NCBI GenBank assembly: GCA_041641295.1
Contig: JBEPYO010000001.1
Span: 416,001 to 480,000 of the forward strand
Length of the DNA stretch: 64,000 nucleotides
Reading direction: 5' to 3'
From: Nitrososphaerota archaeon
GTDB taxonomy: Archaea; Thermoproteota; Nitrososphaeria_A; Caldarchaeales; Calditenuaceae
The notes beneath the pieces are model-generated. The model had not been told where the DNA came from. It did no database searches and saw only the letters and a list, made by a program, of their open reading frames with translations. The translations under genes and the position numbers were made by a program. Position 1 is the first letter of the stretch, and the number at the start of each line of letters is the position of its first letter. Shown here in pieces: positions 22,712 through 28,647 of the stretch.

Positions 22712-23311
22712 CTATCTCTTGGCGGTTTTGAGAAAGTTTTCCAGTATTTTGTGCCCCTCCTCCGTCATTATTGACTCTGGGTGGAATTGGACGCCGTAGA
22801 TTGGATACTTCCTGTGCTCTAGGGCCATTATCTCGGCGTCGTCTAGGGCGACGGCCGTGATCTCCAAGGCTTCTGGGAGCGGGGGCTTGACAGCCAGTGA
22901 ATGGTAGCGGGCGACTCGGAGTGGGTTCTTAACGGCTTCGAAGATTCCCGAGCCGCTATGCCGCACCATACTCACCTTCCCGTGCATCAGCCTAGAAGCC
23001 CTTTCTACCCGCCCTCCAAAGACACAGACAATCCCCTGATGCCCAAGGCACACTCCCAGAACTGGGCGCTCCTTACCCATCTCCAAGATAATGTCGCCTG
23101 AGACGCCGAAGAACCTCCTATCAGCTGGATGGCCTGGCCCGGGTGATATGATGATCGCATCGGGGTCGAGTTTGAAGGCCTCCTCGAGGGTCAGCTTATT
23201 GTTTCTGAAGACTATTGGGTATGAGCCCAGCTCTCCGAGATACTGGACTATATTGTAGACAAATGAGTCGAAGTTATCTATCACCAGCACCTTTAGCACC
23301 ATCACCCTCAC
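22712..23311 (-). CDS. trpG: Anthranilate synthase component II (glutamine amidotransferase)
   Basis: IDNFDSF, ISPGPG, GVCLGHQ, RYHSL, QFHPES; overlaps trpE stop. Confidence 0.92.
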   Translation of the reverse strand: MRVMVLKVLVIDNFDSFVYNIVQYLGELGSYPIVFRNNKLTLEEAFKLDPDAIIISPGPGHPADRRFFGVSGDIILEMGKERPVLGVCLGHQGIVCVFGGRVERASRLMHGKVSMVRHSGSGIFEAVKNPLRVARYHSLAVKPPLPEALEITAVALDDAEIMALEHRKYPIYGVQFHPESIMTEEGHKILENFLKTAKR

Positions 23312-24690
23312 CTCGCCATCGCTGAGAGAAGTGCAGCCGCCTTATGCTCCGTCTCATACCACTCTGCCTCAGGCTTACTGTCTGCAACCACCCCCATACC
23401 CACCTGAATACTCGCCCTCGTGCCAGAGTGGCCTAGAAGCGTCCTAATGGTTATAGCGAAATCAGCACTGCCGTTGAAGGAAATATATCCTACACAGCCC
23501 GCATAGGGTCCACGCCTCACAGGCTCAAGCTCATCAATTATCTCGATGGCCCTGAGCTTAGGAGCGCCAGTCACGGTCCCGGCGGGGAAGGTGGCCTCGA
23601 GGGCGTCTATTGCGCTCAAGCCAAGCTTTAGTTCTCCAACTACGTGGGAGACGAGGTGCTGGACATGGCTGTACCTATGCACCTCCATCAGCGAGGCAAC
23701 CCTCACGGTCCCATACCTGCAGACCCGGCCAAGATCGTTACGCGCCAAGTCAACCAGCATTACATGCTCGGCCAGCTCCTTCTCGTCTCTCCTAAGCTCC
23801 TCCATCAATCTATCATCCTCTTCTGCACGCCCAGTCATCGGCCTGGTACCCGCAATCGGAAATGTCTCAACCCGAGACCCCTCGACCCTAACCAGCATCT
23901 CAGGACTAGTCCCAACAATCCACCTATCATCCAGCCTAAACACATACATGTATGGTGAAGGGTTAATCCGCCTCAACTCCCTATAGTATCCCAGATAACT
24001 CCCCGCCACCTCTACGTCAATCCTCCTAGAAGGGACGACCTGGAGAACATCCCCAGCAGCAATATACTCCTTCGCCCTAACCACCATCTCCTCGAACTCC
24101 TCCTTCGAAATGCTTGACCTAACGCTGACGGCACGTAGAGGCTCCTCATCCCCCTCATCCCTCACCAACCTTTTGACCTCCTCCCACTCTGCGCTCGGAT
24201 CACGGCCATAGATGTATGCCTCATTCATCCGGTGGTCGAATATAATACCCCGGTCGTAGATCCCGAACTCCATCTCTGGAAAGTCGTGTCCCGCCTTCTC
24301 TCTGAACTGGATATCCTCCCAGTATTTCACAGTCTCGAAGGAGACATATCCAACGGCCCCGCCTAGAAACCTGAATCTGTTCTCTCTATTCTTGGAGCTT
24401 AGAACGAGCTCTCCAAGAATCCGAATCGGGTTTTCAGCGTCTACCCTGAGCCTCACACCCTCCAACTTATCGAAAACCTCAAGCACACCATCCTCGACGA
24501 CTAGAGTCGCGACTGGATCCCAGCCAATAAAGGAAAATTCGGCCAACTTTCTCGGCCCGGAAACAGACTCTAGCAGATAGGTGCGCTCATATTCTTTTGA
24601 CAGTGCGCTGAAGATTTTGAAGGGTTGATAGCTGCAATCTATCTTCTCTACCTCAATATTCCGCTGACTTATCGCCTCTGCAAGGCCAAA
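23308..24690 (-). CDS. trpE: Anthranilate synthase component I; frame open from 24690 but no ATG/GTG/TTG until 24546
   Basis: YLLES motif lies upstream of the ORF-track start; NPSPYM, PIAGTR (Ala, not the PabB Lys), EHVMLVDLARND, GAPK, AITIRT. Confidence 0.93.
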   Translation of the reverse strand, partial: FGLAEAISQRNIEVEKIDCSYQPFKIFSALSKEYERTYLLESVSGPRKLAEFSFIGWDPVATLVVEDGVLEVFDKLEGVRLRVDAENPIRILGELVLSSKNRENRFRFLGGAVGYVSFETVKYWEDIQFREKAGHDFPEMEFGIYDRGIIFDHRMNEAYIYGRDPSAEWEEVKRLVRDEGDEEPLRAVSVRSSISKEEFEEMVVRAKEYIAAGDVLQVVPSRRIDVEVAGSYLGYYRELRRINPSPYMYVFRLDDRWIVGTSPEMLVRVEGSRVETFPIAGTRPMTGRAEEDDRLMEELRRDEKELAEHVMLVDLARNDLGRVCRYGTVRVASLMEVHRYSHVQHLVSHVVGELKLGLSAIDALEATFPAGTVTGAPKLRAIEIIDELEPVRRGPYAGCVGYISFNGSADFAITIRTLLGHSGTRASIQVGMGVVADSKPEAEWYETEHKAAALLSAMAR

Positions 24691-24709
24691 CTAAACCCCC
24701 TCTACTCAA
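24653..24709 (-). other. Upstream ORF MSRGGLVWPCRGDKSAEY with candidate +1 frameshift cassette into trpE
   Basis: TTG 28 nt below TTAAATA (24743-24737); GGGGGT-TTA-GTT-TGG-C; trpE frame opens at the +1 codon TTT. Confidence 0.55.
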
Positions 24710-24835
24710 CCCTCGCAGACACCAGCCCCCATCGGCTATTTAATCCTTCACCACCCCCACGCGTGGAAAAGCCATACCGCAAGGCCAGACAGCGCTAAAA
24801 TAGTGGCTTAAAACATATCGTGGTTGGGATAAGAT

Positions 24836-25231
24836 TTGAGCAGGCCAGCCGAGCTTGGATCAATCAAGGAGGGCAGCAACATCGTAATTGATGGCGAGCC
24901 GTGCCGCGTGGTCGAGGTTGAGAAGTCTAAGACAGGGAAGCACGGGTCGGCAAAGGTTAGGGTGGTGGCCATAGGCATTTTCGACGGCGTCAAACGGAAC
25001 ATAGTTGGCCCTTCGGACCAGAGGGTCGAGATACCGATAATCGAGAAGAGGTCGGGGCAGGTCGTAACGGTGGGCGAGGTGGTCTCGGTGATGGATAAAG
25101 ACACCCTAGAAATAGTCGAGATACCGCTTCCAGCAGAGGAGGAGCTGAGGGCAAAGCTCGAGCCTGGAGCCAATGTCGAGTACTGGGTCGTCCTTAATAG
25201 AAAGATGATAAGTCAGGTACGTAAAGAGTAG
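24836..25231 (+). CDS. eif5a: Translation factor aIF5A
   Basis: SKTGKHGSAK hypusination motif. Confidence 0.97.
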   Translation: MSRPAELGSIKEGSNIVIDGEPCRVVEVEKSKTGKHGSAKVRVVAIGIFDGVKRNIVGPSDQRVEIPIIEKRSGQVVTVGEVVSVMDKDTLEIVEIPLPAEEELRAKLEPGANVEYWVVLNRKMISQVRKE

Positions 25232-26960: not shown

Positions 26961-27155
26961 TAGCCCATCTACACATACACTTGGGCCAGGGCTCATAGGC
27001 GGCGCCACCGCCAAGGCAGGTGTAAAACACCTCAGCGATGAGGCGGTGACATCCGGCTCTGGCTATAATAGGGGTGAAGACCTGAGGGACCATAAACGAT
27101 CCTCAGGTCCAATGTGGGCCGCTTCCGTGCAGACCCCGCCAATAAAATTGGCCGG

Positions 27156-28647
<1,492 letters not shown>

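Follow-up and report, generated by a model that had tools for sequence, protein, structure and literature searches.

The window analysed here is a stretch of 64,000 nucleotides (nt) from a Nitrososphaerota archaeon of the Calditenuaceae (GenBank assembly GCA_041641295.1, contig JBEPYO010000001.1, positions 416,001 to 480,000 of the forward strand). Its minus strand carries a trpE-trpG gene pair, the first member of which is preceded by a short leader open reading frame (ORF) in another frame, with a tryptophan (Trp) codon at the very point where the trpE frame opens. This arrangement points to a programmed +1 frameshift of the kind known from the bacterial release factor 2 (RF2) gene prfB, with UGG as the candidate sensing codon. 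The features of the locus are listed below, frame A being that of trpE and frame B that of the leader; P and A sites are the peptidyl and aminoacyl sites of the ribosome, and SD stands for Shine-Dalgarno.

24737..24743, minus strand: TATA-like box TTAAATA of the trpE-trpG promoter, read directly
24707..24709, minus strand: TTG start of the leader in frame B (the -1 frame relative to trpE), read directly
24653..24709, minus strand: zero-frame leader ORF of 18 codons plus TGA, MSRGGLVWPCRGDKSAEY, the product expected if no shift occurs
24695..24700, minus strand: SD-like GGGGGT, 3 nt 5' of the P-site codon GTT, with a predicted duplex with the 16S rRNA 3' end
24685..24691, minus strand: candidate shift site G-TT-TGG-C, with P codon GUU (Val), zero-frame A codon UGG (Trp) and +1 A codon GGC (Gly), from reading and comparison
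24691..24693, minus strand: TAG closing the trpE frame immediately 5' of TTT, which bars entry into frame A from upstream
23308..24690, minus strand: trpE reading frame of 460 codons plus TGA, from the ORF, Pfam and NCBIfam
22712..23311, minus strand: trpG (glutamine amidotransferase subunit), from Pfam and NCBIfam, with possible starts GTG 23311, GTG 23305 and ATG 23302

Rereading of the sequence bore out what the preliminary description had reported of this region, namely its coordinates, the TTAAATA box, the upstream ORF from TTG 24709, the TAG and the opening of the trpE frame at 24690. The leader codons run TTG AGT AGA GGG GGT TTA GTT (24691-24689) TGG (24688-24686) CCT and onward to TGA (24655-24653), encoding LSRGGLVWPCRGDKSAEY. 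The trpE frame, after the TAG at 24693-24691, begins TTT GGC CTT and encodes FGLAEAISQRNIEVEKIDCSYQPFKIFSALSKEYERTYLLES and what follows; the long ORF that ends at 23308 thereby sits in the +1 frame of the leader. The earliest ATG, GTG or TTG in the trpE frame is TTG 24546 (codon 49), which lies beyond the LLES motif (codons 39-42). The first T of TTAAATA is 34 nt 5' of TTG 24709, and this distance suggests that the transcript starts a few bases 5' of the TTG. At the other end of the gene, GTG 23311 of trpG overlaps the trpE stop as GTGA, an arrangement from which translation of trpG would appear to be coupled to that of trpE.

The product of the open frame contains the Pfam domains Anth_synt_I_N and Chorismate_bind (E-values 1e-25 and 9e-93). 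Its best NCBIfam model is TIGR01820 (TrpE-arch) with 497.2 bits, slightly under the cut-off of 512.05 and well over the scores of the PabB models, the match beginning only at residue 23 of the open frame. With both domains present, TrpE models scoring best and trpG adjoining, it is assigned to TrpE. Close relatives of the protein come from hot-spring metagenome-assembled genomes labeled Nitrososphaerota, Thermoproteota, Aigarchaeota, 'Archaeon HR02' and Candidatus Caldarchaeum. Since the next gene 3' of trpG is an unrelated one of the CoaBC type (predicted coenzyme A synthesis), trpE and trpG form a two-gene unit. The missing start codon misleads gene callers about the N-terminus of this protein: the public call (23311-24546) gives a 412-aa product from TTG 24546, its mates in the same 90% identity cluster (P0002, P0003 and P0005) were called at 431, 454 and 376 aa, and the NCBI annotation of one member of the genus has a 454-aa product beginning at ATA (MDRRNIEVER...). 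These four differing and mostly truncated N-termini within a single 90% cluster are annotation errors.

Taken at face value, truncated calls of 412, 431, 454 and 376 aa would also fit a pseudogene, a mis-assembly or a sequencing error. The host genome comprises 1.56 Mb in 5 contigs and is 93.8% complete. In a comparison with Logan contigs, three public runs from two studies, all three of which are possibly the source of this genome, show no difference over 24300-25000 (701 bases). A fourth run represents a relative about 87% identical, which differs by substitutions and has indels only at 24756, 24769 and 24830, all outside 24546-24745. The preliminary description had wished to see an indel in the leader excluded, and none is present in the three identical assemblies or, within 24546-24745, in the relative; as the comparison used assembled contigs, it bears on indels, and rare variants or changes in the RNA are not visible to it. 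Given these assemblies, a 460-codon frame intact with full TrpE domains, and the same layout in 89 of 103 trpE loci (see below), error and decay are refuted as far as the DNA goes, and we accord them practically no probability.

In bacterial prfB, an autoregulatory +1 shift occurs at CUU-UGA-C, with the SD-like sequence AGGGGG 3 nt upstream. The trpE leader has the same build: the main ORF lies in the +1 frame of a short upstream ORF and is without a start codon of its own over 48 codons, the P codon can re-pair in the +1 frame (NTT_T; here GUU to UUU, with 2 of the 3 bases), and a G-run precedes the site. It departs from prfB in that the zero-frame A codon is UGG in every cassette rather than a UGA read by the gene's own RF2. 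Having UGG in place of UGA, the cassette is a variant of the prfB kind and not a member of the prfB family. We consider it probable that trpE is expressed through a prfB-like programmed +1 frameshift in which UGG, as the slow codon, serves as the Trp sensor; this is the reading proposed in the preliminary description, and every comparative test suggested there supports it.

On this model, ribosomes would start at TTG 24709 and make M-S-R-G-G-L-V, bringing tRNA-Val onto the P-site GUU with the A site over UGG. Trp has no codon besides UGG, which would be read by the single tRNA-Trp(CCA) of the genome. The GGGGGT would pair with the 16S 3' end as in bacterial prfB and act as a stimulator. When charged tRNA-Trp is plentiful, UGG would be read and translation would terminate at TGA 24655-24653, giving an 18-residue peptide and no TrpE. 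When it is scarce, the A site would stay empty, the P-site tRNA could re-pair on UUU, and GGC would be read by tRNA-Gly. After such a slip, full-length TrpE (MSRGGLV-GLAEAISQ..., 466 aa) would be made and ribosomes would also reach the overlapping trpG; the predicted tryptic junction peptide of the shifted protein is GGLVGLAEAISQR, without Phe and Trp. Low Trp would in this way lead to TrpE, TrpG and, via a second cassette described below, the rest of the pathway, and high Trp to the short peptide only.

A TrpE match was found in 23 of 41 genomes of the order, our own genome included. Eleven of these loci (seven of its own genus, g1, and four of genera g3 and g4) all have the TAG|TTT GGC opening together with a frame-B start, and none has a sensibly placed start in the trpE frame; an ordinary in-frame start replaces the cassette in none of the 11. 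The frame-B peptides read M(S)RGGLV-W, MGDLV-W and MSGGLV-W, and a TTG stands at the equivalent position in 7/7 loci of the genus. Among members of the genus a 3-nt indel (AGT) after the leader TTG preserves frame B, and the differences 5' of the site (GGG/GGC, TTA/CTA) are synonymous in frame B, those 3' of it (CTT/CTA/CTC, GCA/GCT, GCG/GCA) in frame A. When the five closest members are compared over the 16 codons that follow TTT, variable columns number 6, 5 and 12 at frame-A positions 1, 2 and 3. Frame B meets stops at varying places, in two members of the genus 4 codons after NTT. This pattern of substitution indicates that the coding frame switches from B to A at the shift site. An ungapped entropy analysis across distant families was uninformative, the N-terminal extension being poorly conserved and interrupted by indels, and only the comparison within the genus was usable.

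The same comparison bears on the idea that there is no frameshift, that TrpE initiates at an in-frame ATA 24672, ATT 24657 or ATA 24642, and that the upstream ORF either encodes a leader peptide of its own or is without function. ATT 24657 is 29 codons before LLES, the position at which an ATG or GTG stands in loci of family f21. The TrpE-arch model, beginning at residue 23, has no need of the first residues for its match, NCBI annotates a member of the genus from ATA, and the five closest members all have the ATA at codon 7. However, ATT 24657 is GTT in L006 and CTT in L007, and the ATA is missing in L009 and L011. Codons 3-6, 5' of ATA 24672, change mainly at third positions within the genus, and such mostly synonymous change makes them appear translated. 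A non-canonical start would moreover leave unexplained why, in 89 loci, TTTGG is invariant, a frame-B start stands at a set distance and an SD-like run is present, and likewise why the +1 bridge frames leading to trpD and to a transporter gene are open. We therefore regard it as decidedly unlikely.

For a wider view of the trpE leader, 401 genomes of the phylum were searched, 215 of which had a TrpE (227 matches). From the best 150 of these matches, 80 5' regions were picked by hand to span families; the 77 weaker matches lie outside this sample, so several families are unsampled. Together with the 23 loci of the order this gave 103 trpE loci from distinct genomes. The cassette, comprising a frame-B start, 2-7 codons, NTT-TGG, and trpE opening at TTT-GGN, is present in 89 of the 103, so that NTT-TGG and the frame offset prove conserved as the preliminary description would have it; recurrence on this scale is more than chance. 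The start lies 4 codons from NTT in 56 loci. TTTGG is invariant in all 89, an invariance of UGG that is partly by construction as TTTGG defined the cassette in the search. The +1 codon is GGN in each of them, and the P codon is CTT in 48, GTT in 28, ATT in 10 and TTT in 3; in other words, 48 of the 89 have the CUU of prfB and three a perfect UUU_U. Past NTT, frame B ends after 2 to 47 codons, and the sequence after TGG is not conserved. With the TAG on one side and frame-B stops 2-4 codons past NTT on the other, the interval available for a shift appears narrow. In 46 of the 89, the stretch from the upstream stop to the site is free of canonical frame-A starts, and 35 of these also lack one in the next 15 codons; in 13 loci (genera g1, g3 and g4, families f18 and f19) a stop stands directly before TTT. 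Among the loci with named hosts, the cassette occurs in 19/19 from Nitrososphaerota, Aigarchaeota, Bathyarchaeia and Nitrosothermus, and in 0/9 placeable bacterial and euryarchaeal trpE loci. One Bathyarchaeia locus has ATT instead of its neighbors' ATG, by which it has lost the frame-A start and gained a perfect TTT_T slip site. The preliminary description had treated the cassette as a peculiarity of one gene, which proves too narrow a view: it is widespread and modular.

The preliminary description also held that GGGGGT can pair with the anti-SD sequence over 6 positions, 3 nt 5' of GTT. Duplex prediction of GGGGGT (24700-24695) against the 16S 3' end (GGATCACCTCC; GAUCACCUCC) confirms the 6 pairs, with -8.6 kcal/mol, and the run is conserved. 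When the 16S 3' end of this genome is applied to all 89 cassette loci, the 14 nt before the P codon have a median predicted energy of -8.1 kcal/mol, and 78 of the 89 reach -6 kcal/mol or lower, compared with 3, 6 and 10 in three control windows taken downstream. All 89 have an SD-like G-run ahead of the site, which is, as far as predicted pairing goes, the arrangement of prfB. A TATA-like 7-mer lies 5' of the frame-B start in 81/89 loci. Its first T is 28-31 nt from that start in f5, in g12 and g15 of f3, and in f56, 33-35 nt in our own genus and 38-56 nt elsewhere. The 28-31 nt spacing fits leaderless transcripts starting at the frame-B ATG, and the spacings taken together would place the frame-B start at or near the 5' end of the transcript. 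The tRNAs that such a shift would require are found in the genome, namely Val-GAC, Gly-GCC and a single Trp-CCA.

The short homopolymer runs of the leader (GGGGG and TTT) raise a further explanation, in which polymerase slippage or editing in the G5/T3 run corrects the RNA and makes trpE continuous with the frame of TTG 24709. Members of the genus have breaks in the G-run (GGCGGT, GGCGAT) with the frame offset unchanged, and the gain or loss of one G in it yields a stop and not trpE. Known cases of slippage need longer runs. Passages of PMC5009743 treat runs of that kind. Correction at the RNA level thus strikes us as exceedingly unlikely.

The cassette is not confined to trpE. The 15-nt core GGNGRTYTAGTTTGG occurs exactly twice in the 1.56-Mb genome, once in the trpE leader and once in the leader of a trpD-to-trpA block; a Pfam search for the remaining trp genes places trpD, trpC and trpA in this one block, 600 kb from trpE. 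Its leader lies beyond the window:

C1:1034716-1034858, about 555 kb past the window end: second cassette and trpD start, with the leader GTG ATA TCC GGT GGT TTA GTT TGG TCG GAG TAG

This leader begins 24 nt after a TTATATA box and has one TGG, 2 codons past which the zero frame stops. The +1 frame is open for 31 codons, across the trpD start (GTG, C1:1034834), and stops 22 nt past the first base of the latter. Across 41 related genomes the core pattern gave 24 hits in 15 genomes, versus 1 for the reversed control. The 24 comprise 11 trpE leaders, 10 trpD-type leaders, identified by similarity of the downstream N-terminal translation and not by a family scan, and 3 leaders before a Peripla_BP_6 gene in genus g5 of the same order. 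The trpD-type loci belong to two genera (L165, L164, L166, L167, L154-L157, L147 and L163), and in them the +1 frame ends 5-22 nt past the trpD start. In g5 (L159:1511-1700, L160 on the reverse strand, and L161:1511-1700) a leader reading LGDLVW... precedes a gene for a LivJ-type amino-acid-binding protein of ATP-binding cassette (ABC) importers, and the three genomes, 97-98% complete, have no TrpA or chorismate-binding match. Here the +1 frame is open for 57-62 codons through an AT-rich spacer and ends 8 nt past the ATG of the gene.

In all 13 of these loci without fusion, the +1 frame can be read from the shift site to the downstream start without meeting a stop and closes 5-22 nt beyond that start, and the two other frames contain 1-11 stops. 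Shuffling leaves the +1 frame open in only 0.4-2% of cases at the AT-rich g5 loci and in 20-54% at the GC-richer trpD loci, so each of the latter is weak evidence taken alone. The bridge peptides are not conserved. From this distribution of stops, the +1 frame is to all appearance used even where no protein fusion results, and shifted ribosomes might travel on to the next start codon and reinitiate there or unmask it.

A search of the whole genome for a start, 2-9 codons, NTT-T and a long +1 ORF gave 348 raw hits, 17 of them without a frame-A start, and trpE was the sole convincing one; a looser scan added only the trpD leader. These scans of our own genome gave no sign of comparable cassettes in which the codon is one for Tyr, Phe, Cys, Ser or Leu. 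In five complete genomes of family f5, the motif ATGGGTG-N6-TTTGG gave 7 hits, 5 at trpE and 2 inside unrelated coding regions, and hence no second cassette. What links the cassette to Trp is where it occurs. It leads Trp genes or, in genomes in which trpE and trpA were not found, an amino-acid uptake gene, and the genome of the window has it at no other place.

This link is also what speaks against a +1 shift that is needed for TrpE and yet constitutive, of fixed efficiency and without any response to Trp. The anatomy and the conservation would fit such a shift equally well, and the SD-like run together with the weak G:U wobble of tRNA-Val(GAC) on GUU could suffice to drive it. The zero-frame A codon, however, is UGG in 89/89 cassettes. 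That count is in part a product of the search pattern; the independent 15-mer search is not circular in this way, and 21 of its 24 hits are leaders of trp genes and the other 3 precede a gene for an amino-acid-binding protein, an association which a sensor explains and a fixed shift does not. A constitutive shift is, in our estimate, unlikely.

Stalling without any change of frame was likewise considered, i.e. a sensor of the bacterial attenuation kind, in which a pause at UGG alters RNA folding or decay and so opens trpE to translation or transcription. A short leader with a Trp codon before trp genes is the hallmark of bacterial trpL, and in genus g5, where no trpE was found, the minimum free energy (MFE) fold has the GGAGGTG of the gene paired with a CCCCUC on its 5' side. 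In our own genus, on the other hand, the trpE frame has no start codon that such a pause could open. The leader has one Trp codon and no tandem pair, the RNAalifold consensus of 10 family leaders is empty, and one trpD-type leader has a fold z-score of -3.21, the others lying in an unremarkable range of -1.65 to +1.24. A stalling mechanism would, furthermore, require neither the NTT before TGG nor the open +1 frame, and we find it most unlikely. As an observation on these folds, the MFE structures of g4 and g5 leaders (L147, L159) pair the G-run (UUGGGGGA) with CCCCC 60-70 nt downstream. This long-range helix, which is not seen in the genus of the window, may hide the leader start or the SD-like run.

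Several findings weigh against a Trp-sensing frameshift at trpE and should be set beside those that favor it. A canonical frame-A GTG or ATG does stand just 5' of the site in 43 of the 89 cassette loci, among them all 15 of family f5 (ATG GGT GGA CAC CTT TGG A), with the consequence that the shift is not obligatory there and that the conserved letters serve two frames. The cassette is missing in 14 of the 103 loci, namely 7/7 of f10, 4/4 of f21 and three single ones. In f10 the start codon comes about 25 nt after the TATA-like box, 5' of which lies a TGTACA-rich palindrome. In f21 apparent coding sequence reaches the trpE start in 4/4 loci, so that trpE would seem not to lead its unit. At the locus itself the slip from GUU to UUU re-pairs 2 of 3 bases only, the leader has a single Trp codon, and the transcript start would be placed by nothing other than a TATA-like box. 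The G-run is weaker in members of the genus (GGCGGT and GGCGAT), lineages differ in its spacing to the P codon (about 3 to 6 nt), and no shared RNA structure was recovered from the 10 family leaders. As to the sample, loci were hand-picked and weaker-matching families lie outside it, the genomes are related so that counts are not independent events, and nearly all of those compared are metagenome assemblies.

With these points taken into account, the trpE cassette is best read as a variant form of the autoregulatory +1 frameshift known from prfB, to which the present comparison would add phylum-wide conservation and modular second and third uses. A broader proposal, to which we would give about an even chance, is that start codon, SD-like G-run and N-UU-UGG constitute a portable Trp sensor, based on a +1 shift at a hungry codon, that is ancestral to much of the phylum containing Nitrososphaeria (ammonia oxidizers and Caldarchaeales included) and Bathyarchaeia and that stands in for the leader-peptide attenuation of bacteria. 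It would have at least three outputs: direct fusion to TrpE; a +1 bridge ORF of non-conserved sequence that brings ribosomes to where the trpD-to-trpA block starts, acting by termination-reinitiation or unmasking; and, in relatives in which neither trpE nor trpA was found, this same type of bridge leading to a gene for amino-acid uptake.

The likeness to prfB extends from the short ORF followed by a main ORF in the +1 frame without its own start, through the P codon NUU followed by U with re-pairing on UUU and the internal SD-like G-run a few bases upstream, to the proposed logic, in which scarcity of whatever reads the A-site codon would raise the output of the pathway supplying it. In contrast to prfB, the slow codon of trpE is a sense codon, decoded by a tRNA where prfB has a stop for a release factor; what is sensed would be an amino acid or charged tRNA; the host is archaeal; the shift would come as early as 5-8 codons after initiation; and ahead of trpD and of the transporter gene the cassette is also put to use in bridge ORFs, with no protein fusion. 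Bacterial trpL has tandem Trp codons and terminator/antiterminator hairpins and acts on transcription. Both are short leader ORFs before the first trp gene that report, or in the present case would report, charged tRNA-Trp. The trpE leader differs in having one TGG in its 18 codons where trpL has at least two adjacent Trp codons, in the absence of conserved alternative hairpins from the 10 leaders folded with RNAalifold, and in its proposed readout by a change of frame. Antizyme is made by a shift at UCC-UGA that is stimulated by polyamines and a downstream pseudoknot. It resembles the trpE case as a metabolite-responsive +1 shift obligatory for a regulator or enzyme of the same pathway, and differs in not being a sensor of tRNA charging.

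Programmed frameshifting, including that of the prfB kind, receives a general treatment in a 2016 review (PMC5009743), passages of which also mention the mammalian and fungal antizyme +1 shift as a polyamine sensor. Yeast Ty1, ABP140 and EST3, as presented in parts of that review, shift +1 at CUU-AGG-C and are similar in the CUU, in the slow sense A codon and in an efficiency set by the supply of one tRNA. They are different in depending on a rare tRNA with no amino-acid sensing, in lacking an SD-like stimulator and in being eukaryotic. Closer in principle is the hungry-codon frameshifting of starved E. coli (Gallant and co-workers, summarized in sections of PMC5009743), where an empty A site at the codon of the limiting amino acid lets the P-site tRNA slip by one base. 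It was described there with reporters and mutant genes, whereas the trpE case would be a selected and conserved control, and the same part of the review calls the natural extent and use of hungry-codon frameshifting unclear. That programmed frameshifting exists in archaea is evident from portions of PMC8211752, PMC3711429 and PMC5009743, which report recoding in magnesium chelatase and virus tail genes and the -1 shift in the alpha-L-fucosidase gene of Saccharolobus solfataricus. In these portions the cellular cases are -1, a +1 case is that of the archaeal virus HSTV-2, and none is tied to amino-acid supply. The text of the three papers that was searched, supplementary cluster tables aside, has no mention of trpE, anthranilate or tryptophan sensing. 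No trpE frameshift or Trp-sensing frameshift was found in the literature searched.

If a Trp-sensing frameshift operates at trpE, the decoding step itself would be the sensor, the supply of charged tRNA-Trp deciding by a one-base slip whether the first enzyme of Trp synthesis is made, and hungry-codon frameshifting would be a selected, natural and conserved form of gene control. To our knowledge, amino-acid sensing in most archaea is largely unknown, with a few transcription factors such as TrpY described and no counterpart of bacterial attenuation. Family f5 carries the cassette, and if it includes cultured ammonia oxidizers, as its size and its complete genomes make probable, the idea could be tested at the bench; should the cassette indeed be a portable sensor, the cultured ammonia-oxidizing archaea would offer a direct test.

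Palindromes rich in TGTACA or GTACA lie directly 5' of the trpE TATA box in L089-L091 and L129-L132 (f10) and in L037 and L039-L041 (Bathyarchaeia), and they resemble the operators of the archaeal Trp repressor TrpY. In family f10 the palindromes are present and the frameshift cassette is absent.

Some candidates for further cassettes in the genome of the window were dropped, three of them (a Rce1-like gene, a THUMP-domain ORF and a glycosyltransferase) after a Pfam check. The Rce1-like gene has its own GTG; the ORF with a THUMP domain (RNA-binding) is unrelated to tryptophan; and in a further hit, to an ABC ATPase (GTT TGG, C1:1368206), the match is the protein's own FGG motif, with start codons lying upstream. 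The glycosyltransferase, of family 4, was set aside as a different matter, the interruption being in a T7 run. Its gene (C1:1154190-1155400, L143, outside the window) begins GTG AAG ATT CTA CAC GTT CTT CCC TTT TTT TGA, with MKILHVLPFF in one frame and the remaining 393 codons in the +1 frame; a sequencing error, phase variation or a further recoding site might account for this change of frame. Also outside the window, at about C1:1094700-1094950, an aromatic-rich leader, MSRGRGVGRSYLTPLWGTTTYAYFFGPID, precedes a gene beginning MSRLGVAILGATGMVGQ. The +1 frame is open from within this leader to a TAG 10 nt past the ATG of the gene, the NTT-T slip site is absent, and the geometry may be due to chance.

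Within the window, the gene divergent from the trpE leader (24836-25231, plus strand) encodes the translation factor aIF5A (IF5A-like_N, EFP_N). The two have a 90-nt intergenic promoter region in common, which is probably a coincidence. Farther along, the 16S rRNA gene occupies about 27000-28645 on the plus strand and ends near 28645 (...GGATCACCTCC); its presence accounts for the rise in G+C to 0.62-0.65 from 27000 onward.

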